Below, one piece after another: positions 24,158 through 64,000 of a stretch of 64,000 nucleotides of DNA. Each line of letters begins with the position of its first letter. The stretch's first letter is position 1. A model generated the notes under the pieces. The model saw only the letters and a list, made by a program, of their open reading frames with translations, had not been told where the DNA came from and made no database searches. The translations under genes were made by a program, and so were the position numbers. The DNA comes from an uncultured Lentisphaeraceae bacterium (GTDB taxonomy: Bacteria; Verrucomicrobiota; Kiritimatiellia; RFP12; DVOR01), in contig CALBHX010000028.1 of the NCBI GenBank assembly GCA_937892925.1, positions 3,392-67,391 on the forward strand. Direction: 5' to 3'.

Positions 24158-24191
24158 AAAATCCGGAGGCACATATAACGCCTCCGGATTT
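24158..24191. terminator. rho-independent terminator downstream of the histone-like dksA gene
   Basis: Perfect 11-bp inverted repeat AATCCGGAGGC-N9-GCCTCCGGATT flanked by A-run and T-run, 37 nt past the minus-strand stop at 24228. Confidence 0.7.
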
Positions 24192-24227
24192 ATTATCCAA
24201 CCTCAGCAACAACACTCCGTGCTCTTC

Positions 24228-25334
24228 CTACGCGTTCTGCTGTCGCCGATTCTTTGCCTCCTTCTTCTTCGCCTCATACTCTGTTTTGCACTTTACACAA
24301 CGGATGGCAAAAGGATATGACTTCAGACGATCACGCGTAATAAGGCAGCCGCAGACCTGACAAATACCGTACGTTTTCTCTTTGATAGCGGTCAAAGCAT
24401 CATTCACCGAATTGAGCTGATCCTGAAGATCATTTGCCCGATTCAAATCTGCCGTACGAGTAAAGGTGTTCGTGCCATCCTCCTCCACGTTCTCCTCATC
24501 AGCCCGGCTCAACGCTTCGCCACGAATCGCACGCTGACGGCGGAGAATCTCTTCTCGACGCTCCAACAACCGCAGCTTGAAATCCTCTAAATCCGCATCG
24601 CTGAATCGCTGTTTCCCCCCCTTTGGGAAGCGTGTACTTCCCTGCGCAGCTCTTTTTCCCAACACTGCACTCGGTTTGATGACCGGATAACGCGGCTGTA
24701 AATGTGTTACAGGCTTCGCCGAAACCGAAACAGCCTTGTCCGACGTTCCGGTTGGCTTGGACAAGGCTTTTTTGGCAGGAACAGCCTTGATGGCCGTCTT
24801 CTTTTCAGCAGCCGCGGTGGTTTTTGGAGCTTCAACACGCTTCTTCACAGAAGCTCCGGCCTTTGATGCAGACTTCGCCGTTACCTTTTCATCCACCTTT
24901 TTGGCCGATGCTTTAGCAACCCCCTTGGATGCCGCAATCTTCTTTGCCGGGACTTCCTTCTTGGCCGACACCACGGACTTTTTAACCACAGCCACCGTTT
25001 TTTTCACGGCAGACTTCGCCGCAGGCTTAACCCCAGAAGATTTTTTCACCGCGGCCGGCTTTTTTCCCCCTGCAACCGCCTTCACCGGTTGTTTTTTTAC
25101 AGCTGTCTGCAACACCGACTTCTTCGCTGTGAGAACTTTAGCGGCCGGCTTTTTCACACCAGCCGTTTTGCTCGAACCGGAGGCCGAAGTCTTCTTGACT
25201 GCGGAGGCACCCAAAGACGTCTTTACGGAAGGAGATTTCGCGGCGGTTTTCCCCGAACTCTTTTTCACCGAGGCTTTTTTCTCTTTCGGGGCGGATGTCT
25301 TTTTTGACACAGGCTTTTTAGTGGTGGTTGCCAT
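24228..25334 (-). CDS. histone H1-like Lys/Ala-rich N-terminal domain fused to a DksA/TraR-family C4 zinc finger
   Basis: About 190 aa of KKxA/AKK repeats, then a DksA-like coiled-coil region and CQVCGCLITRDRLKSYPFAIRCVKC (Cx2Cx17Cx2C). ATG 25334 has GAGGAGG 9 nt upstream. Confidence 0.7.
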   Translation of the reverse strand: MATTTKKPVSKKTSAPKEKKASVKKSSGKTAAKSPSVKTSLGASAVKKTSASGSSKTAGVKKPAAKVLTAKKSVLQTAVKKQPVKAVAGGKKPAAVKKSSGVKPAAKSAVKKTVAVVKKSVVSAKKEVPAKKIAASKGVAKASAKKVDEKVTAKSASKAGASVKKRVEAPKTTAAAEKKTAIKAVPAKKALSKPTGTSDKAVSVSAKPVTHLQPRYPVIKPSAVLGKRAAQGSTRFPKGGKQRFSDADLEDFKLRLLERREEILRRQRAIRGEALSRADEENVEEDGTNTFTRTADLNRANDLQDQLNSVNDALTAIKEKTYGICQVCGCLITRDRLKSYPFAIRCVKCKTEYEAKKKEAKNRRQQNA

Positions 25335-25593
25335 AATGCAGAACCTCCTCAAGATGAGCATCATGTCACGCAGATGCGGCAGTTGTCGGGCCCTCCCTCA
25401 CAACCCCAACATGTTATCAAAAACGGCCCCCTTTATGCAAGACTTCTCACACGTCAAGCCAGGCAGAAAACCCGCCTGCCTCCTCGTCCGAAAGTTCATC
25501 TGCTTTGTCAAAACACGTTTCAATCCACACCTTTAGGTTCCGATGCCGCCCAGCGCCACCCATCCAGCGAATATATGCTATCATGCCCATACC

Positions 25594-26973
25594 ATGCGCG
25601 TTGCCTTCTGTTATCCGCCCATTCCCTCCGCCAAAGGCGTCCCTCTGCTTTCTCAAAACCGGCAGTTTCAGTGGTTCAGCAGGCCTACGGCCATTTATCC
25701 CGTTGTCCCTGCCAGCGCCGCCACCCTGCTCAAAAACCGCGGCTATGACGTACTCTGGCTAGATGGCATCGCACAACAGCTCTCGCCAGAAGCCTATTGG
25801 GAACGCCTCTGTGCCTGGAAGCCCGAGGTTGTCTTTCTCGAAACCAAAACGCCTGTGGTCCATTTCCATTGGCGTTGGGTTCAGGAACTCAAGCAGCGGC
25901 TCCCCGCCTGCCGCGTGGTTCTGGCAGGCGATCACGTCACAGCCCTTCCTGAAGAGACCCTTGCCGCCGCCCCGGTCGATGCTGTTCTGCACGGCGGCGA
26001 TTACGATTTTTCCCTGCTTGCCTGGTTGGAAAAGCGCCCCGTTTCCATCGATCTTGCAGCGCTTCCTCTCATCGACCGCACCCTGACGCGATGGAAAGAC
26101 TACGCCTTCAGTAACGGAAACTTTCTGCAGACCCCAGGAGCTTACATCATGGCTGGGCGCGACTGTTGGCACGGCAAATGTACATTCTGTTCTTGGACCA
26201 CTCTCTACCCGACCTATCGTATCCGCCCCGTTGAAACCGTTTTGGATGAAGTCGGTATGCTGATCCGCCTAGGAGCAAAAGAAATTATGGATGACACCGG
26301 GAGCTTCCCCATTGGGAGCTGGCTGCACACGTTCTGCGAAGGCATGATCGCTCGCGGTTACCACCGGCGTGTCCGAATGAACTGCAATCTGCGATTCGGC
26401 GCCCTTCATGAGGCAGACTATCGTCTCATGCGCAAAGCTGGCTTCCGCATGATACTCTTTGGCGTAGAATCCGCAAACGCCGAGACGTTAGCACGCCTGA
26501 ACAAAGGGCTTTCCCCGGAACAAATCGTGCAAGGCGCCCGCATGGCCTCCGCTGCGGGGCTGGACGTTCACATTACCCTGATGTTCGGCTATCCTTGGGA
26601 AACCCTTGAAGATGCCCGGCGCACGGTAGCCCTTGGCCGCGACCTCCTGCGCCGGGGATACGCCGCCACCCTTCAAGCCACCTGGCTCGTTCCCTACCCC
26701 GGAACACCCCTCTTTCGCGAACTCAAAGCCTCCGGCCAGCTCCTCACCGAAAACTGGGACGCTTACGACATGCGCGCCCCCGTCATGCGTTCTCCCCTCT
26801 CCGAAGCAGACATCCGCCGTCTGATTTCCGAGGCCTACCGAAGCCATCTCCAACCCCAAGTTCTCCTCCGCCAAGCAGTACGCGCACTCCTTCACCCAAC
26901 CTATCTGCAAAAAAGTTTCCGTGCGCTTACCGGTCATTTACGCGACTTCCGTCAATCCCCATCCATCACCTAA
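25594..26973 (+). CDS. B12-binding-domain radical SAM protein
   Basis: N-terminal B12-binding-like domain (MRVAFCYPP..., VVLAGDHVTALPEE) and a radical-SAM cysteine cluster in GRDCWHGKCTFCSW. Start taken at ATG 25594. Confidence 0.55.
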   Translation: MRVAFCYPPIPSAKGVPLLSQNRQFQWFSRPTAIYPVVPASAATLLKNRGYDVLWLDGIAQQLSPEAYWERLCAWKPEVVFLETKTPVVHFHWRWVQELKQRLPACRVVLAGDHVTALPEETLAAAPVDAVLHGGDYDFSLLAWLEKRPVSIDLAALPLIDRTLTRWKDYAFSNGNFLQTPGAYIMAGRDCWHGKCTFCSWTTLYPTYRIRPVETVLDEVGMLIRLGAKEIMDDTGSFPIGSWLHTFCEGMIARGYHRRVRMNCNLRFGALHEADYRLMRKAGFRMILFGVESANAETLARLNKGLSPEQIVQGARMASAAGLDVHITLMFGYPWETLEDARRTVALGRDLLRRGYAATLQATWLVPYPGTPLFRELKASGQLLTENWDAYDMRAPVMRSPLSEADIRRLISEAYRSHLQPQVLLRQAVRALLHPTYLQKSFRALTGHLRDFRQSPSIT

Positions 26974-27000
26974 ACATCCCCGCCAGCCCCTGAAATCCGC

Positions 27001-27594
27001 CTACCGCAACCGAAACGCACAATCGTAAATCGGATCGCCTTTCGACCGGAATAACAATTCAAAATCCGTCTGCTCATCCTCTGAGCGAACTAACGGCGCA
27101 ATCGCCTCAAACCGCACATCCTCCGAAAGATAGCGCTGCATCTCACGAAAATAATCTGCGTGATCCGTTGAAATATAAATTGCACCGCCCGGAATCAAAA
27201 TCCGCGCCAACACCTCACACATCTCCCGCTGAAAAAACCGATTCTTATGATGTCGCCGCTTCGGCCAGGGATCCGGGAAAAAGAGATACATGGCATGAAC
27301 AGAAGCCGGCGGCAACAACTCCCGGACAAACCGCCCCGCTTCCACTCGAACAAACAGCAGATTCTCCAGCGCCCCCTGCTTTGCCTTTTTGGAGCATTTG
27401 CGCAAACGCTCCATCATCCGTTCCACCCCAAGGTAAAACTGTTTCGGGTGTTTCGCCGCATTCGCCGCCAAGAAACGTCCGTTCCCGCATCCAATTTCAA
27501 TTTCCAGCGGCATGCCGGCTGGAACATATGCCGAGAGATCAAATACGTTATCTGCTTCTTTCAGTTCAACCACATGAGGCAACAAATCATTCAT
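27001..27594 (-). CDS. trmB: tRNA (guanine46-N7)-methyltransferase
   Basis: IEIGCGNGRFL SAM-binding motif and FFPDPWPKRRHHKNRF, typical of TrmB. Confidence 0.85.
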   Translation of the reverse strand: MNDLLPHVVELKEADNVFDLSAYVPAGMPLEIEIGCGNGRFLAANAAKHPKQFYLGVERMMERLRKCSKKAKQGALENLLFVRVEAGRFVRELLPPASVHAMYLFFPDPWPKRRHHKNRFFQREMCEVLARILIPGGAIYISTDHADYFREMQRYLSEDVRFEAIAPLVRSEDEQTDFELLFRSKGDPIYDCAFRLR

Positions 27595-27857
27595 GTTTCA
27601 AGTATACCACATTTTCGCTCATCAGCCGCCCCAACCTCAGAAGCCCCACACCCCTACCCCTTCAGAATCCCAACCACGACAGCAGCATTCCTCTATCTTT
27701 CCGGAATACGGGATCGACCAATCCGACCCTCACAACCTCAAATCCTTTTCTATGATGCAGCCTCACACTCCGCACGCGTGGACGAATCGAGCTTCAATGG
27801 GTGACACACTGAACAGTTGAAACGTTTTTCCATAACTCTAACCCTGAAATCAAAGAA

Positions 27858-51543: not shown

Positions 51544-54162
51544 ATGTTAAACTTCAAGCAACTGGATACCCCAAGCCTCATCAAGTGGGCCATTTTGGCC
51601 GTCTTGGTGGCGTTTTCCTGCTGGGTTACCTTCCCCGTTAAAGAACATGTCCGCCTGGGGCTTGACCTCAAGGGCGGCACCAGCTTTACCGTTCAAATCG
51701 ATGAGCCCCGGTTGATCGAAGATCTCAAAGCCGAAGGCTATGCCGCCGCAGGGCTCACCCCCGAAACCGCCACAGCCGAACAAACCGCCAACATCGAAGC
51801 GAAAGCCAAAGCTGATGCGCAGGTTCTCATGGCCGATGCCGATGATCTGACGCTGGAGGTGCTCCGCAAACGCATTGACGCCTTGGGCACCAACGAGCCC
51901 ATCATTGCCAAGGCTAACGGGCACCGTATTCTCATCCAAATCCCTGGAGCCGATGCAGCGCAGGCCGCCGCCGCCGAGAAGTCCGTGAAAAGCGCGGCCT
52001 TCCTCACCTTTCGCCTGGTTCACAAAGATAACGATCGTCTGGTGCGCGGCGTGCTCGATTCCACTCGCACCCCCGAAGGCTTCGAGCGCAGCACCTGCAG
52101 CGGGCGCGTCTGCTTCGTTCGTTCACAAGCCTACAATACGCTGTCGGAACAACCCGATTACGCCGTTAAACTGGGGCGTTTCGCAGCCCCTTCCGCGCTG
52201 TATGAATGTGTAATGGAAGAAATCGGCAAGGATCCCGCCGGGCGCGATGCTTACTTGCCCATGTTTCTCTCTCGCAGCCGCGAAGCGACCATCCCCGGCT
52301 CAACGGTGGCTTCCGCACGCCCCAGCAAGAACCCCACCACCGGTAAAGTCGTGGTGGATGTAGAGTTCAACTCTGAAGGCACCGCCGCGTTTGCCAAGCT
52401 TACCGGCCGTTATGTCGGCCGCCAGTTGGCAATCGTGCTCGACAACACCGTCCGTTCTGCACCCGTGCTCCGCTCGGAAATCTCCGACGGCCGCTGTGAG
52501 ATCTCCGGGGGCTTCACGTGGCGCGAAGCGTCCAACCTTACCGGCGTACTTAACGCCGGTGCACTCAAAGCTCCTATCCGCGTGATCGAAACCCGTTCGG
52601 TTTCGCCGAGCCTGGGCAATGAAGCCATCAGCAAAGGCGCCCTTTCTGCCGCAATCGGCGTGCTCGCAGTCTTTATCTTCATGCTTTTCTACTACCTCTG
52701 CTGCGGTATCATTGCCGACATTGCCCTGCTGCTTAATATGATATTGTGGCCCGCCGGCATGATTGTGGCCTCCGGCATCATGAGCACGTTCGTCGTAGAC
52801 GGAACCGGTAGCACCTCCCTTGGGCAGCTCCCCGTGCTCACGCTCCCGGGTATCGCAGGTCTTGTTCTTTCCGTCGGCATGGCCGTTGATGCAAACGTGC
52901 TGATCTTTGAGCGGATGCGTGAAGAATTCCGCTTGGGTAAAACGGCGAAAGGCGCCGTGGCGGCCGGTTATGACCGCGCATTCCTGGCAATCTTCGACTC
53001 CAACCTGACCACGCTGATCACCGGCGTCATCCTCTTCATCTTCGGTTCCGGCCCCATCCGCGGTTTTGCCGTTACCCTCTGCGGCGGTATCATCATCTCC
53101 ATGTTCACCGCCCTGGTGATCACCCGCCTGATCTTCAATCTGACGACAGGCGATACCACCAAGCCCTTCAAAATGCTCCAGTGGGTGCCCGAGAATATCA
53201 ACTTCGATTTTCTCAAATGGGCCAAGCCCGTTTCCGCCATTGCCGCGTTGGTGATTATCGTTACCCTCGGCATCTTCTTTACCCGGGCATACCGTAATCC
53301 AGCCAGCGTTATGGCCGTAGACTTCACCGGCGGTGTGGCGCTTACCTACGAGGCCATCGATAAGAAGGACAACGCCACCATCCACGCCCTTGACACCGAG
53401 AAAGTGCGCCAGGTGGTTCACAGCACAGGCGTAACCGATGAAACCGTCCAGAGTTCCACCGGCGAAGGCGGCAAAGTTCAAACCCTCGTCAAAACCTCTA
53501 CAGTGAACCTGACCGTTAACGGCGAAGAAACCGACTCGGCCAAAGTCATCGAAAAGGCACTCGATGAAGCCTATCCAGAATACACCGTTCGCCTCGTGAG
53601 CAAAGATCTTGTCGGTTCGCAGATCGGTGCGGAGCTGAAAAAAGATGCCACCTGGGCAATCATCCTCTCGCTCATCTGCATCATTGCCTACGTCAGTTTC
53701 CGCTTCCAGTTTGGGTTTGCCCTCGGCGGTGTGGTGGCGCTTGCCCATGATGCCCTTATCACACTGGGCATCTACACCATCTGCGGCAATCAGGTAAGCT
53801 TGACCACGGTAGCCGCCTTGCTGACGATTGTAGGTTATTCGATCAACGATACAATCGTGGCCTTCGACCGGATTCGCGAGCTGATGCACCGCGATGCTAC
53901 CACACCCTTCCCCGAGCTGGTACGCAAAGCATTGAATCAGACGCTTAGCCGGACGCTCCTGACCACACTTTCCACCTTGCTCCCCGTAGCAGCGCTTTAC
54001 TTCTTCGGCGGAGCTGCCATGCACGACTTTGCCTTCGCACTCTTCGTAGGCATGGTGGCCGGCACGTACTCCACGCTCTTTATCGCCCCGCTCGTTACGC
54101 TTTGGTTCTATCGCGGCAAACGCCCGCAAGCAGCCGTAGAAGCCAAACACGAGCAGCCCTAA
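51544..54162 (+). CDS. secDF: protein-export membrane protein SecDF (fused SecD-SecF, 872 aa)
   Basis: SecD periplasmic domain and TM bundle, followed in frame by SecF-like TM region (LGIYTICGNQVSLTTVAALLTIVGYSINDTIVAFDRIRE). Confidence 0.9.
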   Translation: MLNFKQLDTPSLIKWAILAVLVAFSCWVTFPVKEHVRLGLDLKGGTSFTVQIDEPRLIEDLKAEGYAAAGLTPETATAEQTANIEAKAKADAQVLMADADDLTLEVLRKRIDALGTNEPIIAKANGHRILIQIPGADAAQAAAAEKSVKSAAFLTFRLVHKDNDRLVRGVLDSTRTPEGFERSTCSGRVCFVRSQAYNTLSEQPDYAVKLGRFAAPSALYECVMEEIGKDPAGRDAYLPMFLSRSREATIPGSTVASARPSKNPTTGKVVVDVEFNSEGTAAFAKLTGRYVGRQLAIVLDNTVRSAPVLRSEISDGRCEISGGFTWREASNLTGVLNAGALKAPIRVIETRSVSPSLGNEAISKGALSAAIGVLAVFIFMLFYYLCCGIIADIALLLNMILWPAGMIVASGIMSTFVVDGTGSTSLGQLPVLTLPGIAGLVLSVGMAVDANVLIFERMREEFRLGKTAKGAVAAGYDRAFLAIFDSNLTTLITGVILFIFGSGPIRGFAVTLCGGIIISMFTALVITRLIFNLTTGDTTKPFKMLQWVPENINFDFLKWAKPVSAIAALVIIVTLGIFFTRAYRNPASVMAVDFTGGVALTYEAIDKKDNATIHALDTEKVRQVVHSTGVTDETVQSSTGEGGKVQTLVKTSTVNLTVNGEETDSAKVIEKALDEAYPEYTVRLVSKDLVGSQIGAELKKDATWAIILSLICIIAYVSFRFQFGFALGGVVALAHDALITLGIYTICGNQVSLTTVAALLTIVGYSINDTIVAFDRIRELMHRDATTPFPELVRKALNQTLSRTLLTTLSTLLPVAALYFFGGAAMHDFAFALFVGMVAGTYSTLFIAPLVTLWFYRGKRPQAAVEAKHEQP

Positions 54163-54216
54163 ACGGCTTGGAGCAAATCCGCTTGCATCCGGGCAGAATC
54201 CGCCTGGATGCCCTCT

Positions 54217-54304
54217 GGAGAGGTGGCAGAGCGGTCGAATGCGGCGGTCTTGAAAACCGTTGAATCGCAAGATTCCGGGGGTTCGAATCCCTCCCTCTCC
54301 GCCA
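54217..54304 (+). tRNA. tRNA-Ser (anticodon UGA), class II with long variable arm
   Basis: Acceptor GGAGAGG/CCTCTCC, anticodon stem GCGGT/ACCGT with loop CTTGAAA, long variable arm, T-arm GGGGGTTCGAATCCCTC, and 3' GCCA. Confidence 0.85.
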
Positions 54305-54618
54305 TCATTTTTGACACCTAGAAAGAGTCGGCTGCCCGGCTCTTTCTCATGTCTTGGAATTGCCCCATTGTTTGGGCGTTTTTGTTCCGTTAGCGCGGGA
54401 GCGGAATCGCTGTTGCTTTCGGGGGAGAACAGCACGTATTCACGTTGAGGACGATATCGTAACTGGAATGGAGCCGTCGAGTCTGGGATACTGCAAGCTT
54501 GACATTGAAGTATTGAACGACATATGATGGAACGGGACGTGGCTCGGAGAATAACTCATTCGTGCGGATTATCAGAACATTCCGGCTGACGACATGGTTG
54601 CATTTCTTAGGATGACAT

Positions 54619-55671
54619 GTGGTTAATGATAACGTTCGAATAAAAACCGACTCAGGCGAGAGAGTAGACGCGTTGGCGCCTGTCATTGTTTCCGCTAGCC
54701 GCTCTACCGACATCCCGGCATTCTACGCCAGGTGGTTCTTTAACCGACTCAAACGCGGATACTGTGTCTGGTACAATCCCTTTAATCAAAAACCCTCATA
54801 CGTTTCGTTTGCCAAATGCAAGGTCATTGTATTTTGGACAAAAAACCCTGCCCCGATCATACCTTTTCTCCCTGAACTTGATCGTCGAGGAATTCACTAT
54901 TATTTCCAAGTCACACTTAACGATTATGTCCGTGAAGGGTTGGAGCCGAATGTTCCTTCGATTGAAGAACGGGTGGAGACCTTCAAGCGGCTTTCGGCGC
55001 TGATTGGGAAAGAGCGCGTGATTTGGCGCTTCGATCCTCTAATCCTGACCGAGACCCTCACGCCTAGAGAAATACTTAAGAAAATCTGGCGTGTAGGCAA
55101 CCTCATCAAAGGAACTACTGAAAAATTGGTGTTCAGTTTTGTCGATATCTCCGCTTATAAGAAAGTCCAACATAACTTAGTCAGGGGAACGAAGGCTTTC
55201 AACTTCGGCAATGTGATGTCAGCAGAAATGACAACAGATCAGCGAAGAGAAGTTGTCGAGGGGCTTGTTAAGATTCGGCAGTCATGGTCTCGTGAGGGGT
55301 GGCACGTAACAATGGCAACGTGTGGAGAGGCGTTCGATTACTCGGCATATGGCGTGGAGAGGAATTGCTGTATTGATGGGTCTCTGATGGAGCGCGTGTT
55401 TGGCGACGACAAGGGGCTTGTCTCCTTTCTAAAGACTGGAAAGATTGCAGAACCCGACTTGTTTGGAGCCTATCCTTCACTGCCTGTTGTCGGAAAGAAT
55501 CTCAAGGATAAGGGACAGCGTAAGGCGTGTGGTTGTATGATAAGTAAAGATATTGGTCTGTATAACACATGCCGCCATTTCTGTATCTATTGCTATGCAA
55601 ATACCAGCAGAACGTGCGTACTGAAGAACGTTGCAAGACACCGTGACGAGAACGAAAGTATCATTTGGTAA
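54619..55671 (+). CDS. DUF1848-family protein with C-terminal Cys cluster
   Basis: GTG start, the only in-frame start after a stop 1 codon upstream. Conserved N-terminal VIVSASRSTDIPAFYARWF and C-terminal CGCMISKDIGLYNTCRHFCIYCYAN. GC is about 46%, well below the surrounding genome. Family name recalled from memory. Confidence 0.55.
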   Translation: MVNDNVRIKTDSGERVDALAPVIVSASRSTDIPAFYARWFFNRLKRGYCVWYNPFNQKPSYVSFAKCKVIVFWTKNPAPIIPFLPELDRRGIHYYFQVTLNDYVREGLEPNVPSIEERVETFKRLSALIGKERVIWRFDPLILTETLTPREILKKIWRVGNLIKGTTEKLVFSFVDISAYKKVQHNLVRGTKAFNFGNVMSAEMTTDQRREVVEGLVKIRQSWSREGWHVTMATCGEAFDYSAYGVERNCCIDGSLMERVFGDDKGLVSFLKTGKIAEPDLFGAYPSLPVVGKNLKDKGQRKACGCMISKDIGLYNTCRHFCIYCYANTSRTCVLKNVARHRDENESIIW

Positions 55672-55689
55672 AGGGGGCTGGGTGGCGTA

Positions 55690-56097
55690 CTGCTTCCGGG
55701 CACGTTCGAGTCCACTGAAATCGTGCCGATAGAGGGCGCCCCTATCGAAGTAGAACGTCGTGATCCGCTCGACCTTGCGTAGCCAGTCTAGATCCCGTCC
55801 ATTCTCGACGATCTTCAGTGGAGCGCCGAAGCGGGGCTCTCAGCTCCTTGCAGATCTTCCACACGCGGCCTCCGCCCCTTGATCACATCTTGCAGAAGCT
55901 CGATGTGCTTAGCGAAGCGTTCCTCCATTCCGACGTACCGCTGCAGCCGACAATGGCGCGATCTGGCTTATCCTCCTTCAGGATCCGTTCGAGACGATGG
56001 CCGGAGCCGTTCTCGAGGGCGAAGAGGAAGTCAGTGCCAGGGCTCCACTTCTTGCTGCTCGACATCATCTGCGTGCGGAGGCGGCGATGGCCGCCGC
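55690..56097 (-). pseudogene. candidate frameshifted gene remnant between DUF1848 and rtcR
   Basis: Three consecutive minus-strand frame segments each read protein-like but are interrupted by frame changes and lack a start: ...DFLFALENGSGHRLERILKEDKPDRAIVGCSGT / VGMEERFAKHIELLQDVIKGRRPRVEDLQGAESP / LKIVENGRDLDWLRKVERITTFYFDRGALYRHDFSGLERARKQY. Confidence 0.3.
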
Positions 56098-57732
56098 CTA
56101 GGCTCTGACAATTTCCTTGAATTTCAGGCCGAACCTGGCGAGGAACTTGGTCAGACGATCCGAGTCGTTAGCGTTTGCTTTGGCCTTTCGCGAGATGGCG
56201 AAGAGTCGTTTCGCAGCGTCCGCCGCCGTGTCGCAGCAGCGGCAGACGGCGATCACATGAGCGAGCATCGCAATGTCGGTGCTGTCGAAGCGGGAAAAGA
56301 AGTCCGATCCGAGGACCCGCGACAACTCGTCGAAGTTTGCGAATGGGATGACCGTTGCTTTCGGATCGCAGCGGATGGCTGGCCGTTGGGCTCTTCTGCT
56401 TCGGGCGATTTCGTCTTCGACAAGATCCTCGGTGATGCGTCCGCCATCGGAAAGCGTGGCCATACGGACGACCATTGCGTTCAGGTCGCGGAAGTTTCCC
56501 GGCCAGAGATTGTCGGGATCGAGCGCGAAGGCAAGAAAACGTTCGCGAGCCTCCTTATTGAATGTGATGTGTTTCCCGGACTTCGAAGTAAAATTGTCGA
56601 GTTCGTAGGTGAGGTTGGGCTCGATATCTTCGCGGCGTTCTGCGAGACCTGGGAGCTCAAAGCTCCAGAGGTTGATACGGACGAGCAGGTCTGCACGGAA
56701 TTTCCTGTCGGCGACATCGATCGAGAGATCACGGTTCGTTCCGCAGATGATCTGGAAGTCGCTGTGTTCGTCATCCGTTGCACCCAGTGGACGAAAGGTC
56801 TTCTCCTCAATGGCTTTAAGAAGCATGGCCTGAGCCTCGAGGGGGAGCTCCCCGATCTCGTCGAGAAAGAGGATGCCGCCATCAGCCTCCTTGAGATAGC
56901 CATCGTGGTTCGCCTCTGCGCCGGTGAATGCGCCTTTTTTATAACCGAAGAGAGCCGCCTTTGCGAGTTCTCCGCCAAGCGTTGCACAGTTGACATCAAC
57001 GAATCTGCCGCCGACTTGTCCGTTCTGTTTCTTCAGCTTGAAGATTTGGTTGGCAAGCTGGCTCTTGCCTACGCCGGTGGGCCCGGTCAGGAGGATAGGA
57101 TCGGAGGAACGAGCCGAGACGCGTTCGATGGTCTCGATAAGTTTGTTAAACGCCTTATTCCTCGTTTTAATGCCTCTTTTGAGGAACGAGAGGTCGTCCT
57201 GCCGTTCACCCTCGAAACGCTTGGCGAGCTTGTCGTAGCGAGAGAGGTCGAGGTCGATGATGCTGCAGGTGCCCTTGGAGTCGTTCGAGTGCCGGACGTG
57301 CCCCTCCTTGGGCGATGTCTGGATGAGCTTGCCGGGTAAATGCCGGGATTCGGCCAGGAGAAAGAGGCAGATCTGCTCAACATGTGAGCCGGTTGACATA
57401 TGGATGTAGTACTGGGTTCGCTCCTCGTGAAAGCATGGGCTTTTGGCGTAGTCGTAGAACTTTGCGTAGACTTCCTCGAAATCCCACGGGTCTTTCAGGT
57501 CGATGACGTCGAAGACCACTTCCGTTCCCGGCGAGACAGCGTTGATGTCGCGTTTGATTCGTTCTGCGAGCGTCGAAAATTCCGCATTGAAGATGAGGTG
57601 CAGCTCATCGATCGAAAGCTCGTCTTGTTGAACGAGGCCGATGTTGGGACGCCAAGTACCCCAACGCCCCGGACCGTGACCGCCGCGAGCATCCTTCTGT
57701 GTACCGAGGACGGAGATGACTGTGGTTTTCAT
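56098..57732 (-). CDS. rtcR: sigma54-dependent transcriptional activator RtcR (N-terminal CARF-type sensor, AAA+ sigma54-interaction domain, C-terminal HTH)
   Basis: N-terminus closely resembles E. coli RtcR (AVSPGTEVVFDVIDLKDPWDFEEVYA, IHMSTGSHVEQICLFLLAESRHLPGKLIQTSP). Central domain has Walker A LTGPTGVGKS, GAFTGA and GGILFLDEIGEL; it lies divergent from the rtcAB operon. Confidence 0.9.
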   Translation of the reverse strand: MKTTVISVLGTQKDARGGHGPGRWGTWRPNIGLVQQDELSIDELHLIFNAEFSTLAERIKRDINAVSPGTEVVFDVIDLKDPWDFEEVYAKFYDYAKSPCFHEERTQYYIHMSTGSHVEQICLFLLAESRHLPGKLIQTSPKEGHVRHSNDSKGTCSIIDLDLSRYDKLAKRFEGERQDDLSFLKRGIKTRNKAFNKLIETIERVSARSSDPILLTGPTGVGKSQLANQIFKLKKQNGQVGGRFVDVNCATLGGELAKAALFGYKKGAFTGAEANHDGYLKEADGGILFLDEIGELPLEAQAMLLKAIEEKTFRPLGATDDEHSDFQIICGTNRDLSIDVADRKFRADLLVRINLWSFELPGLAERREDIEPNLTYELDNFTSKSGKHITFNKEARERFLAFALDPDNLWPGNFRDLNAMVVRMATLSDGGRITEDLVEDEIARSRRAQRPAIRCDPKATVIPFANFDELSRVLGSDFFSRFDSTDIAMLAHVIAVCRCCDTAADAAKRLFAISRKAKANANDSDRLTKFLARFGLKFKEIVRA

Positions 57733-57946
57733 GGGAACGTATCATACCAAAACTTCATTCATAAAATATCTGAGATGATATGAAATATCTAATTAGCATA
57801 ACCGCTTTTTGACGATTCAAATCTACAGAAGGATTTTAAGACCGATCATAGCAATACGACATCATCTGCTATTTTCAGCATCGGGATGCTTGAACCGAAA
57901 TATTCTGCCGTGCCGACGCCTCTAGCGTCGATTATCTTTGTTGTTT

Positions 57947-57962
57947 TGGCACGTGTCTTGCA
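57947..57962 (+). promoter_or_regulatory. sigma54 (-24/-12) promoter TGGCAC-GTGTC-TTGCA driving the AAA-ATPase/rtcAB operon
   Basis: Exact match to the TGGCAC-N5-TTGCW consensus in the rtcR/operon divergent intergenic region, about 105 nt upstream of the first gene. Confidence 0.75.
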
Positions 57963-58069
57963 ATAAGTGGGCGTCATCGAAACCGCTCAATGGTCAAGCA
58001 TCTCACTTTTTATGAGACCGCCGCTGGTTCGAATTCAGCCACCCAAGCCAATTGAAGGAGAAATTGAAG

Positions 58070-59176
58070 ATGAAGGTCATCAAGACCAACAACACGATTC
58101 ATCTCTACCGGGATGACGTTGAGACGTACGACCGAATCCCCGTCGGGACGTACACAATATGTTTCGCCAAGAATGTCGGATTCTATCTTACGACCAGGAA
58201 CGACATGGCCGTGGAAGAGAAGGTATACGGCTGCCATCCCGAAAAAGCTCGAAAGGTTCTGGCCTCGTTCAGGGATTTCAGCCGGAGCCTTGGCGTGATC
58301 ATGAGCGGAGCCAAGGGGATCGGGAAATCGATATCGGCCAAGCTGATCGCGAAAGAAGCGATTTTCGGCGGAATGCCGGTCATCGTCTGCGACCAGTACG
58401 TCCCCGGCATCGCATCGTTCATCGAATCCATCGAGCAGGAGGTGATGATCCTGTTCGATGAATTCGACAAGGTCTTCGCGAAGACGGATGACGAGAACCC
58501 GCAGGCAAGCATGCTGAGCCTCTTCGACGGAACCGCTGTCGGGAAAAAGCTGTATGTGGTAACGTGCAACGCTCTGACCGGACTCAACGACTACCTCGTC
58601 AACCGCCCAGGACGATTCCACTACCACTTCCGATTCGACTATCCGGACGCGGACGGCATCCGCGAATATCTCCGCGACAAGGTGTCAGAAGAAGGCCGCG
58701 GACAAATCGAAGACGTCGTAAACTTCTCCGAGAAGGTCAACCTCAACTACGATTGCCTGCGGTCAATTGCGTTCGAGATCAATCATGGGGCCACGTTTGC
58801 AGAGGCGATCAGAGACCTCAACATCGTCAGCCTGGGCGAAGAGCGTTACACGCTCGTGCTGCGTATGACGAACGGGGCAACGTTTCAGGCGGCTCCCGTC
58901 TGCATCGACCTATTCGACAAGGGCGCGCGTGCACGCTTCTGGATGAAACGCTGCGGATCCGGCCGCGGATGCTATGCGGAGTTCTGCGTTGGGGACGTGC
59001 AGCTCGACGTGACGAACGGCAAACTCTCGGTCGTGAAGGAGTTCATCAGCGTTGACAACCCCTACGACGACAATGAGGACGACTGCGGGAACCGTCTGCG
59101 TTGGGAGCGGGAAATGCATCCCGAAAGCCTGACAATCTACCAGAACCGGGGAAAGTCGCTCCACTATATCCTGTAA
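58070..59176 (+). CDS. classic-clade AAA+ ATPase of unknown function, first gene of the RtcR-controlled operon
   Basis: Walker A GAKGIGKS, Walker B VMILFDEFDK, sensor-1 VVTCN, and SRH/Arg-finger NRPGRFHYHFRFDYP. N-terminal ~75-aa domain and C-terminal ~110-aa Cys-containing domain (CGSGRGCYAEFC) are unassigned. ATG 58070 has a GAAGGAG RBS. Confidence 0.75.
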   Translation: MKVIKTNNTIHLYRDDVETYDRIPVGTYTICFAKNVGFYLTTRNDMAVEEKVYGCHPEKARKVLASFRDFSRSLGVIMSGAKGIGKSISAKLIAKEAIFGGMPVIVCDQYVPGIASFIESIEQEVMILFDEFDKVFAKTDDENPQASMLSLFDGTAVGKKLYVVTCNALTGLNDYLVNRPGRFHYHFRFDYPDADGIREYLRDKVSEEGRGQIEDVVNFSEKVNLNYDCLRSIAFEINHGATFAEAIRDLNIVSLGEERYTLVLRMTNGATFQAAPVCIDLFDKGARARFWMKRCGSGRGCYAEFCVGDVQLDVTNGKLSVVKEFISVDNPYDDNEDDCGNRLRWEREMHPESLTIYQNRGKSLHYIL

Positions 59177-59189
59177 AGGATCGGCGTCG

Positions 59190-60101
59190 GTGCAACAAAA
59201 ATGGAATGAGGACATGAAGAAGGATTTTGACATACACCAAGGGCATGGCAATCACAACGGCTGTCTATGCGAGCCGGAAAAGGACGGGGCGTTCCTTTCC
59301 GAATGGATCCCAAGAAGCATCACGGAAAGCGAGGTGATCGGAGGGACGAAAGAGCCCATCGCGTGCAACTTCGGCGATAATCTGCCGAAGGAAATGCCGA
59401 TGTTGTTCCTCGGCGATACGAAGGCTCCGCTTCGTCTCGGGCTCCTGCTCGCCGTCAAGGAAGCCGGGAAGCAGAACACACTGGTGTCGGTCTACCCGGA
59501 ACACGATGGTGCGGAAGTACGTGTTAAGATCACAGCGATCCACGAATGGGCGGCGGGCGTTGAAGCAACGCTTGAGGGCGAGGTTCTCGACGAGTCGGCG
59601 CGCGAAATCGCGTTCTTCGACACACGCTACGCTTTGAACAAGGGCCGCTACAAAATCGGGAAGACATACGTCTTCCGGCTTTCGGCGTTTGCGTACAGCG
59701 CCGACGTCCTTCCGGAGGAGAACCGCGAGTTCCGCTTTGAGGGCGAGGACGCGGTCAAGCATCGCGAACGCTGTGGGCAGGAACAGGAATATGACGAAGC
59801 CGGGAAACCGAAGCCCGTGGTCTTCCGGATTGAAAGCGCGGTGGCATTCCTACCGAAGTGGGGGCCGTATCCGGATGACGCCGAGTTCCAGTCCCCCGCG
59901 TTCGGGGACGTGAGCGAGTTCACAGCGTTCGGCACGGACTTCTACCGGATCCATGTCGCGATCGCCCGCGATGAAGAAGACGTCGTCATTCCGCTGATCG
60001 CGCGAAAGTCGCTCTTCTCGGTCGCGCCAAAGACGGACGATCCGGTGTACGGAATGCTGTGGCTCCAGGGATACTGTCCGGACGTGGAAAGCGCGGTGTA
60101 G
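59190..60101 (+). CDS. hypothetical protein (303 aa), second gene of the RtcR-controlled operon
   Basis: ORF lies 13 nt after the ATPase gene and ends 3 nt before rtcA; no recognisable domain by eye. Starts at GTG 59190, alternative ATG 59214. Confidence 0.55.
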   Translation: MQQKWNEDMKKDFDIHQGHGNHNGCLCEPEKDGAFLSEWIPRSITESEVIGGTKEPIACNFGDNLPKEMPMLFLGDTKAPLRLGLLLAVKEAGKQNTLVSVYPEHDGAEVRVKITAIHEWAAGVEATLEGEVLDESAREIAFFDTRYALNKGRYKIGKTYVFRLSAFAYSADVLPEENREFRFEGEDAVKHRERCGQEQEYDEAGKPKPVVFRIESAVAFLPKWGPYPDDAEFQSPAFGDVSEFTAFGTDFYRIHVAIARDEEDVVIPLIARKSLFSVAPKTDDPVYGMLWLQGYCPDVESAV

Positions 60102-60104
60102 AAC

Positions 60105-61136
60105 ATGGCGGCTGTCATCACGATAGACGGATCGATAGGCGAAGGCGGAGGACAGATCCTCCGCACGGCTCTTTCGCTGAGCGCGATAACAAAAACGAAC
60201 ATCGCGCTTGGGAAGATCCGGGCGGGGCGCGAGAAGCCGGGGCTGAGGCGTCAGCATCTAACGTGCGTCCGCGCCGTGGCGGAGATCTGCGGAGCAACCG
60301 TGTCAGGAGACGAGATAGGCTCGCAGGAACTCGTATTCGCCCCTGGGAAAATCAAGGCTGGGAACTACCGATTCGATGTTGGCACGGCGGGCAGCGTGAC
60401 GCTCGTCGCGCAGACCACCATCCCGGTGCTCCTGATGGCGGACGGCGTTTCAACGGTAGCGATCACCGGCGGAACCCACGTGCCGTTCGCCCCGATCTGG
60501 GAGTTTTTCGAATCCTGCTACCTGCCGGAACTTCGACGCATGGGCGCAAAGATCGAGGCCAAGCTCGGCTCCTACGGGTTCTCTCCGGCAGCAGGTGGCG
60601 TCGTCGAGCTGCGTGTCTGGCCGTTTGATTCAAACAGGAAGCTCGAATCATACGAGCTGACAGATCTCGGTGTGTACCGTGGCGGCTCGGTCATCGGCGT
60701 CGTCTCCGCGATCCCGAAGTCGATTGCCGAAGCCGAGGTCGGAATCGTGTTGAGGCAGTTTCCAAAACTAGACCTGACGCCCGAAGTGCGCACCATCGAT
60801 TCCTTCGGCCCCGGTAACTACTGTTACGCGAAGCTCGACTACGAGAGAGCATCGGTTGTCTTCTCATCCGTTGGGGCGTTCGACAAGTCGCGCAAGACGG
60901 TCGGCAACGAGGTTGTGCAGGGCGTGAGGAAATTTCTGAAATCCGGCAAGGCTTGCGAGAAACATCTTGCGGATCAGTTACTGGTGCCCCTTGTGGCTCT
61001 TACCGGAAGACATTGCGAAGAAATGTTTCGTGTTGTCTGGTACGACGACTGGACGCTAGGCATACAGAAGAAAACGAAACACTACGAGACGAACAAAAAC
61101 GTCATACAGATGTTCAATATCGACGATACTATCTAG
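60105..61136 (+). CDS. rtcA: RNA 3'-terminal phosphate cyclase
   Basis: Strong similarity to E. coli RtcA N-terminus (IDGSIGEGGGQILRTALSLSAIT, IRAGREKPGLRRQHLTCVRAVAEICGA, GSQELVFAPG). Confidence 0.9.
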   Translation: MAAVITIDGSIGEGGGQILRTALSLSAITKTNIALGKIRAGREKPGLRRQHLTCVRAVAEICGATVSGDEIGSQELVFAPGKIKAGNYRFDVGTAGSVTLVAQTTIPVLLMADGVSTVAITGGTHVPFAPIWEFFESCYLPELRRMGAKIEAKLGSYGFSPAAGGVVELRVWPFDSNRKLESYELTDLGVYRGGSVIGVVSAIPKSIAEAEVGIVLRQFPKLDLTPEVRTIDSFGPGNYCYAKLDYERASVVFSSVGAFDKSRKTVGNEVVQGVRKFLKSGKACEKHLADQLLVPLVALTGRHCEEMFRVVWYDDWTLGIQKKTKHYETNKNVIQMFNIDDTI

Positions 61137-61153
61137 ACAAGAGGTATTTGGGA

Positions 61154-62389
61154 ATGAAGTGGGAAAAGTTCGAAAATGGGTATTCAGTGCCTGTAAAGAG
61201 CTGGTGCGAGAACTGTGAGGATGGAGTCATGAAGCAGGTGCTCAATCTTGTGAAGCATCCGGCAGTGTTCGACCACGTAGCGCTCATGCCGGACGCACAC
61301 CTGGGCTACGGCATGCCGATCGGCGGTGTGATCGCGTGCGATGGCGCCGTGATCCCGGCGGCGGTCGGCGTCGATATCGGCTGCGGCATGATCGCAGTAG
61401 AAACGGACATCTCGGCGGAACGCTTCGCGAACATGTCGTTCCGGCGGGCCTTTCAAGAGAAACTCAAGGAGCGAATCCCAGTCGGCGAGGGTGTGCCGCA
61501 CCGTAAGGCTCAGTACTGGAAGGGCTTCGAGGAGTACACAGCTAACAACGGCATGCGCTCAAATCTCTGGCCATCGAAGCTCGATCGGCTGAACCTCGGT
61601 ACGCTTGGCGGAGGCAACCACTTCATCGAACTTCAGAGGTCAACAGCGCTCGACGGGAATGGCGCGCCGGAGGGCGGATCGAAAATCTGGCTCATGATCC
61701 ACTCGGGATCGCGCAATCTCGGCAAGCGCATCGAGGAGTACTACCACAAGATCGCGAACCGTCTCTGCACGCGTTTCCGCGTGCCGTTGGCAGATCCCAA
61801 TCTCGCGTTCCTGCCGATCGCGGAGGCTGACGGTCACAACTACTTCACGGACATGCTTTTCGCGCTCCGCTACGCAAAGGAGAATCGCCGCCGGATGATG
61901 GAGGCAATGAAGGCCACCGTCGCCGAGTTCGTGCCGAGCGTGAACTTCCTGCGCACAATCGACATCCATCACAACTATGCTGTTTGCGAGGAACACTTCG
62001 GAAAGAAGGTGTTTGTTCACCGCAAAGGCGCAACATCGGCGAAACTGAACGAGATTGGGATCATCCCAGGCTCGATGGGCACGGCCTCATATATCGTTCG
62101 CGGCCTCGGGAATCCTGATTCGTTCATGTCATGCTCGCACGGTGCGGGCCGCCGCATGAGCCGGATTGCGGCCTCAACCAACCTGACGGTCGAAGCGTGC
62201 GACAAGGCGATGAACGGCATCGTGTACGAGCGCTGGCACACATACAAGGGCTTCGGCAAGTCCAAGCATCGGCTCGACCTCTCGGAGGCTCCGCAAGCTT
62301 ACAAAGACATCGAAGCCGTGATTGCGTCCGAACGCGATCTCGTCGAGCCACGCGTCCGTCTTGTCCCCCTCGCTTCACTGAAGGGATGA
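61154..62389 (+). CDS. rtcB: RNA-splicing ligase RtcB
   Basis: RtcB metal-binding motifs (MPDAHLGYGMPIGGV, GGGNHFIEL, HNYA, SHGAGR). ATG 61154 has an AAGAGG RBS; the track start at 60953 is an upstream extension overlapping rtcA. Confidence 0.9.
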   Translation: MKWEKFENGYSVPVKSWCENCEDGVMKQVLNLVKHPAVFDHVALMPDAHLGYGMPIGGVIACDGAVIPAAVGVDIGCGMIAVETDISAERFANMSFRRAFQEKLKERIPVGEGVPHRKAQYWKGFEEYTANNGMRSNLWPSKLDRLNLGTLGGGNHFIELQRSTALDGNGAPEGGSKIWLMIHSGSRNLGKRIEEYYHKIANRLCTRFRVPLADPNLAFLPIAEADGHNYFTDMLFALRYAKENRRRMMEAMKATVAEFVPSVNFLRTIDIHHNYAVCEEHFGKKVFVHRKGATSAKLNEIGIIPGSMGTASYIVRGLGNPDSFMSCSHGAGRRMSRIAASTNLTVEACDKAMNGIVYERWHTYKGFGKSKHRLDLSEAPQAYKDIEAVIASERDLVEPRVRLVPLASLKG

Positions 62390-62430
62390 CAACCGTCGAT
62401 GAGCTTGTTCATTTTTGAACTTGAACAGAG

Positions 62431-62694
62431 GTGATAACGTTCTTGAAGTCAATAATCACAGACAACCCCATCGACCTCACGAAAGACGCCGTACCTTCGC
62501 TCATGAAGCAAGCGACAAACGTGTGCAACAATCGTGAGCTGCTTCTCTCGGAGCGTCGTTCACGTGCCATATCTTCGTTGCGCTACAACCATCTTCATCT
62601 GCTCCATGTTCACGTTTCTGAGGGCTGTTTTATATATTCCAACCAGGGATCCGGTCCGTTTCGGCGACTCCAATCGTGCTTTTCAATACGATAA
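62431..62694 (+). CDS. hypothetical small protein (87 aa), low confidence
   Basis: ORF in a ~45% GC stretch upstream of the HigA-like gene; no recognisable toxin motifs. Confidence 0.2.
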   Translation: MITFLKSIITDNPIDLTKDAVPSLMKQATNVCNNRELLLSERRSRAISSLRYNHLHLLHVHVSEGCFIYSNQGSGPFRRLQSCFSIR

Positions 62695-62784
62695 AGAAGA
62701 ATGATGAAGCGTATGCTGCAAGCCCATAATGGTATGTTCACTTGAACGTCGGCGCACGGGTTATGCAAGCTTCGGTTCGCGGTT

Positions 62785-62813
62785 GACTTAAGGTACGTCA
62801 AGGGCGTACAATG
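62785..62813 (+). promoter_or_regulatory. sigma70-type promoter TTGACT-N18-TACAAT with overlapping palindrome TTGAC-N9-GTCAA (candidate autoregulatory operator)
   Basis: Located 45 nt upstream of the HTH gene start; the -35 hexamer is part of the inverted repeat TTGACTTAAGGTACGTCAA. Confidence 0.45.
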
Positions 62814-62857
62814 CGCGTGGGTATAAGCAAAGAAACGTTGACGAACTCATAGCGAGT

Positions 62858-63151
62858 ATGCGCGAAGATAGCGAATTCCTACACGGAACAAAAACGGCCT
62901 CTCGTACTTGGTCGGCCGAGGATGGTAAGCATATTGAGAGCAAAGAGGACGTGCAGACTTTGCGCCATACGTTTGGCGTAAGTCAACCCGTATTCGCGGA
63001 GTTCATGTGCGTCAGTGTCAACACGCTGCAGAATTGGGAACAGGGGCGCCGCCAGCCAACAGGAGCGGCGCGGATCCTTTTGACAAATGCCTGCAGCAGC
63101 CGACACTTTCCCGCAAAACTATGGCGGAAAGTTTCTCTGACATGCGATTGA
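62858..63151 (+). CDS. HTH XRE-family, HigA-like type II antitoxin-type DNA-binding protein
   Basis: C-terminal HTH with the characteristic FGVSQPVFAEFMCVSVNTLQNWEQGRRQPTGAARILL motif. Confidence 0.65.
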   Translation: MREDSEFLHGTKTASRTWSAEDGKHIESKEDVQTLRHTFGVSQPVFAEFMCVSVNTLQNWEQGRRQPTGAARILLTNACSSRHFPAKLWRKVSLTCD

Positions 63152-63215
63152 CCCGATAAGGCCACATTGTGATTCTTCTGCACGACACTCGTCAATCTAA
63201 GCATGAATTACCTAT

Positions 63216-63827
63216 ATGGAAGGATATCCGGTGGATGCCACTTTCACAGCAGATGCGCTCGCACAAGCGTTTATTGAGTACAAGGAACGCCTGATGGCGC
63301 TCGTGAAGAAGAACCTCAATCCGATTCTTCTCAAGCGGTTGTCGTATGAGGACGTCCTCCAGTCCGCCTACGAGGCGGCTGCGAAGCGGCTTGACTATTT
63401 TTCCTCAGCCGCGGACGTACCGGTCTACTTCAAACTCCGCACCATTCTCCTCCAGACGATTACCGATCTCTCTCGCCGCCATCTTCAGTCAGAGAGCCGC
63501 GATGCATACAAAGAGGTGAAGGTGAGGGGTGAAGGTGACGATGGGAATCAATCCGGCGTGGTGATCGAGAATCTGGCGGCGAACGTGACTTCTCCAGTTT
63601 CGCGAATGGATCGGGATGAACGGCATGCTCTTCTCCGTCGTGCCGTGGACGCGCTTGCGAAGGCAGATCGGCAGATTATTATTCTCCGACATTTTGACGC
63701 CTTCGAGAATTCGCAATGCGCCGACATTCTCGGCATCGAACCGAAGGCGGCATCCATCCGTTATGTCCGAGCTCTCGAGCGTCTTCAGAAGAAGCTGATG
63801 GAACTCTCATACTTCAGAAAGGCATGA
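63216..63827 (+). CDS. ECF-type sigma-70 family RNA polymerase sigma factor
   Basis: Region 2-like (LSYEDVLQSAYEAA) and region 4 HTH (RQIIILRHFDAFENSQCADILGIEPKAASIRYVRALERLQKKL). Confidence 0.8.
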   Translation: MEGYPVDATFTADALAQAFIEYKERLMALVKKNLNPILLKRLSYEDVLQSAYEAAAKRLDYFSSAADVPVYFKLRTILLQTITDLSRRHLQSESRDAYKEVKVRGEGDDGNQSGVVIENLAANVTSPVSRMDRDERHALLRRAVDALAKADRQIIILRHFDAFENSQCADILGIEPKAASIRYVRALERLQKKLMELSYFRKA

Positions 63828-63832
63828 TCGCA

Positions 63833-64000
63833 TGAGCGAAGATGCGGAACTTCCGGCTGAACTGAGAACACTCGCGGCGGAACTCGATGCGTTGGGTGGT
63901 GTATCGAACGGGCCTTTAGTGGATGCCCTCCCCAATCTGGACGGGACGGATTTCCGTCCGCTTGCACTTCTGGGGCGTGGTGGCATGGGAGAGGTTTACG
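63833..64000 (+). CDS. Ser/Thr protein kinase, N-terminal fragment truncated by window end
   Basis: ATG 63833 lies 5 nt after the sigma-factor gene; the Gly-rich ATP-binding loop LLGRGGMGEVY is at the window edge. Confidence 0.6.

Follow-up and report, generated by a model that had tools for sequence, protein, structure and literature searches.

The window analysed here is a 64,000-nt stretch of contig CALBHX010000028.1 (assembly GCA_937892925.1) from an uncultured Lentisphaeraceae bacterium, and the question that it raises is how the DNA that follows a tRNA-Ser(UGA) gene near its right-hand end came to be there. tRNA genes are common integration sites, and an initial annotation of the window had described a lower-GC genomic island that begins immediately after this tRNA. 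The segment from ~54.35 to ~66 kb, the last part of which lies past the window, was probably acquired horizontally and is best seen as a mosaic of accessory genes, fixed in the species, beside a conserved tRNA block. Its main cargo would be an RtcR/sigma54-controlled RNA-repair operon with a tRNA-like leader and genes for an AAA+ ATPase, a 303-aa protein, RtcA and RtcB; these genes, together with rtcR, are called the rtc module below. Three observations carry this reading: a compositional step at the tRNA, the absence of the segment's genes from this locus in related species, and a control in which the same module was followed in other genomes.

The source lineage is an uncultured gut Kiritimatiellae/Lentisphaerae-type bacterium. 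The relatives of its SecDF protein (60-84% identity) come from metagenome-assembled genomes (MAGs) labelled Candidatus Spyradenecus, Kiritimatiellae or Lentisphaeraceae. The tRNA-Ser(UGA) gene (54217-54304, plus strand) is found where it had been annotated, both by ARAGORN and by the Rfam tRNA model (58.3 bits), and closes a conserved yajC-secDF-tRNA-Ser block. Family searches also recovered the genes that had been listed after it, namely DUF1848, RtcR, RtcA, RtcB, a helix-turn-helix (HTH) protein resembling NadS, and an extracytoplasmic function (ECF) sigma factor followed by a Ser/Thr kinase. Look-ups by exact protein found this locus again in many independent assemblies, and the sequence could be extended by ~4.6 kb past the window (e.g. 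in contig L061).

The compositional step at tRNA-Ser(UGA)

Composition was measured as strand-symmetrised dinucleotide relative abundances (Karlin's delta*) and as tetranucleotide usage deviations, with 2-kb windows for the scan. Delta* to the core of the stretch is 31-75 in every 2-kb window up to 53.5 kb, reaches 113 at 54.0 kb, is 150-172 to ~62.5 kb and 119-137 to ~66 kb, and then falls. For the segment taken as a whole (54305-64000) delta* is 145, versus 42.7 +/- 11.2 for 90 matched core windows (z = 9.2); the highest of these reaches 69.3, so that no part of the core comes near the segment. The tetranucleotide correlation of the segment with the core is 0.64 versus 0.916 +/- 0.023 for matched windows (z = -12). 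The palindrome TCGA has an observed/expected ratio of 2.9 in the segment and 0.83 in the core, a 3.5-fold enrichment. CpG and GA/TC are up in the segment, and GC and CC/GG are down. Both the signature and the codon usage change abruptly at the tRNA (step at ~54.0-54.5 kb). Composition is therefore not uniform, and the break that had been proposed from reading the sequence is borne out by quantitative analysis.

It could be argued that the region is native and vertically inherited, that its odd composition results from expression, strand or gene content, and that the relatives differ from it by rearrangement. Since the counts are strand-symmetrised, strand is no explanation. High expression was considered as the cause of the codon shift and dropped. 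The highly expressed rpoBC and atp genes have the opposite synonymous preferences (CTG, GTG); therefore, translational selection does not account for the shift. The enrichment of TCGA also speaks against a native origin.

GC content is more favourable to a native origin. It drops at the tRNA, from 57.9% to 54.8%, and 9.7-kb core windows have 57.7 +/- 1.6% (range 54.1-59.8%), which places the segment at z ~ -1.8. Since this value is inside the range of the matched core, GC alone is not significant. What stands of the proposed lower-GC island is thus its foreign signature in delta* and codons, whereas the drop in GC is within the spread of the core. The GC figures given earlier for the cargo were close to those measured (DUF1848 47.0%, with a GC at third codon positions (GC3) of 0.51; rtc genes 55.9-58.8%), but the 60-63% given for the core was too high, with rpoC at 55.5%, rpoB at 57.8%, secDF at 57.7% and gatB at 58.8%. 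The GC deficit of the segment comes from DUF1848, from 1.5 kb of spacers (50.6% GC) and from the HTH and ECF genes.

In the five genes of the rtc operon GC3 is 0.69-0.76, equal to or higher than the 0.65-0.72 of the core, and GC and GC3 were dropped as discriminators on this account. The initial annotation had called these genes rich in AAA, TTT and GAT codons, and the opposite is the case. They favour C-ending codons (ATC 88%, TTC 79%, TAC 78% and GAC 67%, versus ~50% in the core), and they use GTC more than GTG and CTC more than CTG, in which they differ from the core and from rpoBC and atp.

Elsewhere in the window, the stretch at 21600-27600 is equally GC-poor (51-55% GC, GC3 0.53-0.58) and has the native oligonucleotide signature. 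It contains housekeeping-type genes (ABC/MlaD, a DksA-type zinc-finger protein and a methyltransferase). With such a signature in a stretch so poor in GC, GC content by itself says little about which DNA of this genome is foreign. GC skew is ~ -0.1 before and +0.04 to +0.08 after the region of ~53000-55000, with the cumulative minimum at the tRNA. The flip at ~54 kb occurs despite mostly plus-strand genes on either side, and the change of sign is read as part of the compositional step.

The module, the junction and the locus in related genomes

The same module serves as a control. The MAG RGIG7486, which is the source of the SecDF locus L003 (SecDF 81% identical), has RtcR-AAA-303aa-RtcA-RtcB on a different contig, with an SBF transporter gene on one side and coaE-rho-ubiA on the other. 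In that setting, the signature and codon usage of the module are those of the host (delta* 61 to the secDF contig L003; TCGA 0.55). In other contigs with the module, its signature likewise agrees with that of its own flanks. Since the module follows the signature of each host, the atypical signature in the window is not intrinsic to the rtc genes, which argues against gene content as the explanation. Some points do favour a native region. The rtc module and the 303-aa gene are characteristic of the clade and lie among housekeeping genes in one relative, and the identity of RtcR and RtcB to their relatives (70-84%) is similar to that of SecDF (70-84%). With the signature and the control set against these points, a native origin is unlikely.

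The signature also bears on the donor. Of the longer contigs that encode the RtcR proteins nearest to that of the window (66-79% identity), most are segment-like (delta* 22-71, r 0.80-0.90). The same contigs are at a delta* of 86-205 from the core of the window, with the exception of L076, which is core-like. Both signature types occur within the clade, and some SecDF relatives, including the closest (L001), are segment-like. Since one clade holds both types, the donor is likely to be a related lineage and not a distant phylum. The planctomycete-type ECF sigma factor and the kinase/FGE genes fit with such a donor. The only named member of the 303-aa family, among 96 close homologues, is again from the Kiritimatiellae MAG RGIG7486. 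The distal genes for the HTH protein, ECF sigma factor, Ser/Thr kinase, FGE-sulfatase-domain protein and hydrolase would share the codon and oligonucleotide signature of the rtc operon, a signature that would be typical of another gut or rumen Kiritimatiellae-type lineage.

The locus itself was surveyed in 24 SecDF-region loci from 23 related MAGs, 22 of which reach the tRNA. The pair secDF-tRNA-Ser(UGA) is kept in all 22, mostly with yajC before it. The genes after the tRNA differ in nearly every relative, and the downstream genes of the window are found at this locus in 0 of the 23 related species. In the closest relative, L001, the order gatC-gatA-gatB-yajC-secDF-tRNA is kept and the sequence diverges ~40 nt past the tRNA. 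What follows in L001 is a different minus-strand gene, encoding a putative glycosyltransferase, and the contig ends 776 nt past the tRNA.

The position of the junction can be read from the same comparison. A terminator hairpin (AGAAAGAGTCGG...CCGGCTCTTTCT, 54318-54345, plus strand) is native DNA past the tRNA. Similarity between the window and L001 extends through this hairpin to 54345 (85.6% over 132 nt). A hairpin follows the tRNA in all relatives, and those of L001 and L002 are similar in sequence to that of the window. A second hairpin with a T-run (54361-54385) is located just 3' of the terminator. Since the similarity to L001 continues through the terminator hairpin, the junction lies after the tRNA terminator and not within the tRNA 3' end, unlike what is expected of tRNA-targeting integrases. 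The compositionally foreign segment, as delimited by delta* and the codon shift, occupies 54346-64000 and continues past the window to ~66 kb.

A change of signature at a tRNA could also result from an assembly chimera, in which two organisms are joined at the conserved tRNA. Species have tRNA 3' ends in common, and in three k-mer-based Logan assemblies the sequence breaks off at precisely this point (k = 31; three contigs begin at 54275 and one ends at 54303). However, one shared 31-mer of the conserved tRNA 3' end suffices to account for these breaks. Strain polymorphism, which had been considered as their cause, was dropped for the same reason. The junction is crossed in eight or more ENA assemblies that are independent of one another and come from different samples, and the five of them that were aligned with the window have 99.5-100% identity to it. 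The identity of the junction in many independent assemblies means that it is not a chimera, and this explanation is extremely improbable.

Several results weigh against horizontal acquisition. Every same-species assembly that reaches past the tRNA has the segment, and no presence/absence polymorphism was seen. The 25-nt tRNA 3' end is present as a single copy in the window and in L061, that is, to 14.3 kb past the tRNA, with up to 3 mismatches allowed; there are no long-range direct or inverted repeats beyond chance; and no integrase, transposase or other mobility gene is found in the 14.3 kb from the tRNA to a CRISPR array. A megablast of the segment against plasmid and phage collections matched only a 47-57 nt RtcB motif. 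The GC and GC3 of most segment genes look normal. The core reference is only 54 kb long, and the signature statistics are noisy on windows of 2-10 kb. The pairing of ECF sigma factor and kinase, as well as the rtc module, is typical of this lineage. Finally, the synteny of the relatives is also lost upstream of gatC/yajC, within a few kb. Since upstream synteny is lost too, the missing downstream synteny is weak evidence, L001 apart. The proposed comparison with relatives thus confirmed that the segment is absent beside the orthologous tRNA-Ser, but with synteny poor on both sides of the tRNA, as a native region would also have it, only L001 is informative.

Some of these results bear on a classical island as well, that is, a tyrosine-integrase element in the 3' end of tRNA-Ser whose integrase and attR lie past the CRISPR array. 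The compositional step coincides with a tRNA, the cargo is defence- or stress-like (DUF1848 with a match to an accessory model of defence-associated reverse transcriptases (DRT), an orphan HTH gene and a CRISPR array ~4 kb past the window), and the contigs all end before or at this array. The initial annotation had already reported that integrase and tRNA repeat were missing from the window, and this now holds to 14.3 kb past the tRNA. In addition, the hairpin after the tRNA is homologous to those of the relatives, whereas after an insertion in the tRNA 3' end this hairpin would be expected at the far junction. An integrase beside this tRNA is missing from all 23 relatives as well; L024 has a putative transposase open reading frame (ORF) ~370 nt downstream of it. 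With the terminator retained and no strain lacking the segment, integration into the tRNA is not upheld, and a classical island is improbable.

The preferred reading, an acquired segment beside the tRNA block, shares some features with known tRNA-adjacent islands, such as the pathogenicity and defence islands at tRNA-Ser and tRNA-Leu. It is adjacent to a tRNA, has an atypical oligonucleotide and codon signature, and carries accessory, stress- and defence-type cargo that is absent at this locus in related species. It differs from them in having no integrase, flanking direct repeats or mobility gene, in retaining the tRNA terminator, in the lack of any strain-level presence/absence seen, and in that the contigs end at the CRISPR array before a distal boundary is reached. 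The foreign segment would have been joined at a synteny breakpoint beside yajC-secDF-tRNA-Ser, after the terminator of the tRNA. We infer the direction and route of transfer. The segment would most likely have come in through recombination at the conserved tRNA block or close to it, or with a mobile element that has since decayed; either is more likely than an integrase that targets the tRNA and is active at present.

The RtcR-controlled RNA-repair operon

RtcR (544 aa, 56098-57732, minus strand) has the CARF, sigma54-activator AAA+ and HTH regions of the family (Pfam RtcR 9.8e-70, Sigma54_activat 8.4e-51; PADLOC RtcR--CARF_AAA_HTH 2e-219). A predicted sigma54 (-24/-12) promoter core, TGGCAC-N5-TTGC (TGGCACGTGTCTTGC, 57947-57961, plus strand), was read from the sequence upstream of the operon, and the motif is found at the equivalent position in L064, L091 and L153. 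The first gene of the operon encodes the AAA+ ATPase (368 aa, 58070-59176, plus strand; Pfam AAA 3.1e-08). It is followed on the same strand by the 303-aa protein (59190-60101), which is beta-strand-rich and has no Pfam, NCBIfam or PADLOC match, by the RNA 3'-phosphate cyclase RtcA (60105-61136; Pfam RTC 2.2e-66) and by the RNA ligase RtcB (61154-62389; Pfam RtcB 2.2e-104). The exact RtcB protein is present in several assemblies.

Between the sigma54 promoter and the start of the ATPase gene, the leader of the operon contains a degenerate tRNA-like element (57985-58039, plus strand) in which the T-arm, GCUGG-UUCGAAU-UCAGC, is intact. Its score with the Rfam tRNA model (26.3 bits, E 0.052) is under the gathering score of 29. 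Homologous leader elements could be aligned in L091 (3858-3934), L153 (8534-8601) and L085 (2619-2690), and two of these score 45.8 and 54.9 bits. The whole leader does not fold more stably than shuffled sequence (z 0.76), and the YrlA model RF02553 has no match in 54000-64000. tRNA or tRNA-like genes were also seen in 11 of 71 more distant RtcR loci, with one to four of them in the 1 kb upstream of rtcR. Without exception they are on the strand divergent from rtcR, and their density is ~10x that of the rest of those loci. In L091 the sigma54 promoter and the 5' half of the tRNA-like leader lie within a ~189-nt tandem duplication (3516-3893), which may be real or an assembly artefact.

The operon can be compared with rtcBA of E. 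coli and rsr-yrlBA-rtcBA of Salmonella (Hughes et al. 2020, PMC7790460; Kotta-Loizou et al. 2022, PMC9650030). In common with these, RtcR is divergent, the promoter is TGGCAC-N5-TTGC, and RtcA and RtcB are distal. The Salmonella operon, too, has additional genes and a tRNA-like RNA between the promoter and the RNA-repair genes. However, the order here is rtcA-rtcB, and the AAA+ ATPase and the 303-aa protein take the place of Rsr/Ro60; no operon ORF has a Ro60/TROVE (Rsr) domain. The element in the window brings to mind YrlA, the Y RNA that resembles a tRNA in rsr-yrlBA-rtcBA of Salmonella (PMC4201824, PMC7790460), but is itself a short degenerate leader. The YrlA Y-RNA modules (Chen et al. 2014, PMC4201824; RF02553) likewise have a tRNA-mimicking RNA within an RtcR-controlled operon, but the present operon has neither a Ro60-binding stem nor rsr. 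In L153 the RtcB gene is followed (13223-14409) by an AAA_33 kinase-like gene and a Thg1-like gene, the latter of the tRNA 5'-end repair type. This putative extension reinforces the theme of tRNA repair.

The ATPase has 2547 homologues, twelve of which are full-length at 79-85% identity; the next full-length homologues are at 54% or less. Many large phages encode full-length homologues with 38-52% identity, and the relatives beyond the top twelve are mostly phage-encoded. The full-length homologues at or below 54% also include proteins on phage-like contigs, and in one of these (L169) an RNA ligase gene (PF09414) comes immediately after the ATPase gene. The homologue in Enterococcus phage EFDG1 lies inside a tRNA gene cluster. 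A general link between this ATPase and tRNA clusters was considered and dropped, since it fails in Bacillus phage Deep Blue, Lactococcus phage AM3 and Staphylococcus phage CF1.

The 303-aa protein is encoded directly upstream of rtcA in all 7 contexts seen and has the conserved motifs QGHGxH and FFDTRYAL. An AlphaFold2 model predicts a mostly beta structure, with a predicted local distance difference test score (pLDDT) of 91 and a predicted template modelling score (pTM) of 0.87. A structure search of PDB and BFVD gave no analogue, and the best-ranked entries align at a template modelling (TM) score of 0.15-0.18. In addition to the 96 close homologues, a profile search finds 1002 cluster representatives. 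Many relatives are fused into proteins of 500-1000 aa without a Pfam domain, apart from one weak ASCH match. The genes found after the ATPase gene in phages are not homologous to the 303-aa protein. The observations on the ATPase, the 303-aa protein and the leader are leads and do not amount to a demonstrated function.

The genes of the module do not have the same relatives. The ATPase is 84% identical in L091 and 39-43% identical in L064, L149 and L153, and RtcR is 82% identical in L064 and 66% in L091. These mosaic identities suggest that recombination may have taken place within the rtc module between lineages.

Other genes of the segment and the place of the operon

The DUF1848 protein (350 aa, 54619-55671, plus strand; Pfam PF08902 E 1.8e-90) is the first gene of the segment. 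A putative sigma70-like promoter, TTGACA-18-TATGAT, lies upstream of it (54499-54528, plus strand) and is a pattern match only (11/12 in a consensus scan). In PADLOC the protein matches the DRT-associated DUF1848 model (RTasDUF1848, E 1e-37). Its nearest homologues (L155-L159, 71-77% identity) are the last or next-to-last gene of operons of 5-8 genes, which encode AAA_30/UvrD-type helicases or NERD proteins together with a number of unknown proteins. The L158 and L159 operons have DDE transposase fragments and GmrSD at their flanks. Named homologues, at 68%, belong to Parabacteroides and Prevotella. Since the DUF1848 ORF alone is common to the window and these operons, the gene is an orphan scrap. 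The L155-L159 operons have the look of a so far undescribed cluster of the defence type, and DUF1848 is all that the window retains of it. The gene, whose GC differs from that of the rest of the segment, is probably a separate and older scrap of such a cluster.

Next to it is a degenerate ORF remnant of 426 nt (55672-56097, minus strand), with ORF fragments in three frames, as recognised from the translations. This agrees with the frameshifted gene remnant of the initial annotation, and no gene is called over this interval in the same-species contigs. The three-frame and joined translations have no match in Pfam or NCBIfam at E <= 10; therefore, the remnant cannot be called the relic of an integrase or transposase.

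On the far side of the rtc operon, an XRE/NadS/MqsA-like HTH protein (97 aa, 62858-63151, plus strand) matches Pfam HTH_31 and, under the cutoff, NCBIfam NadS (3e-09). A putative sigma70-like promoter, TTGACT-18-TACAAT (62783-62812, plus strand), precedes it, with 10/12 in the consensus scan and again as a pattern match only. The protein resembles orphan HigA/MqsA/NadS-type antitoxin-like regulators in being a small XRE-type HTH protein with what may be its own sigma70-like promoter. It differs from them in that it has no toxin gene next to it (the small ORFs around it match no family) and in that the NadS score is under the family cutoff. The ECF sigma factor (63216-63827, plus strand; Pfam Sigma70_r4_2) is of a type typical of Planctomycetes-Verrucomicrobia-Chlamydiae (PVC) bacteria. 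Its best NCBIfam match, under the cutoff, is the Planctomycete-specific subfamily TIGR02984 (7.3e-36). The window ends within the N-terminus of the Ser/Thr kinase (63832-64000, plus strand); the whole kinase of 412 aa can be seen in L061 (12679-13917, Pkinase 3.6e-38).

The ~4.6 kb past the window contain the remainder of the kinase gene, genes for an FGE-sulfatase-domain protein and an alpha/beta hydrolase, ~1.1 kb of non-coding DNA, and then the CRISPR array. The array (L061 16885-17425, or ~68.0-68.6 kb in window coordinates) has at least 8 copies of a 32-nt repeat, GTTTCAATTCACGCGCCCGCGTGGGGCGCGAC, with a period of ~66. The repeat is presumably akin to those of type I-C systems. All same-species contigs stop before or within the array and so do not show the distal side of the segment. 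In the strain contig L163 (12531-13507) the Ser/Thr kinase is broken into two pieces (145 and 156 aa), and RtcR is longer (555 aa). The split kinase indicates that the distal genes may be decaying in some strains.

As a genomic island the segment is routine, being one more acquired accessory block beside a tRNA in an uncultured gut Kiritimatiellae species. GC and GC3 would miss or misdescribe the transfer, which is revealed by di- and tetranucleotide and codon signatures and by the same-module control. The segment points to RtcR-controlled RNA-repair operons being exchanged as units, and the mosaic identities together with the foreign signature suggest that the present operon variant moves horizontally between lineages. 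The cargo may matter more than the island, the rtc operon variant being the more novel item. In this variant the place of Rsr and Y RNA upstream of RtcA-RtcB may be taken by the tRNA-like leader RNA, the AAA+ ATPase with its phage relatives and the beta-rich 303-aa protein. It is tentatively proposed that gut and rumen Kiritimatiellae carry an undescribed, horizontally moving variant of the RtcR/sigma54 RNA-repair operon, which could possibly be a new module for the sensing or handling of damaged tRNA. The variant offers a context of tRNA damage and phage defence for experiments on an uncharacterised protein family, a phage-type ATPase and the leader.

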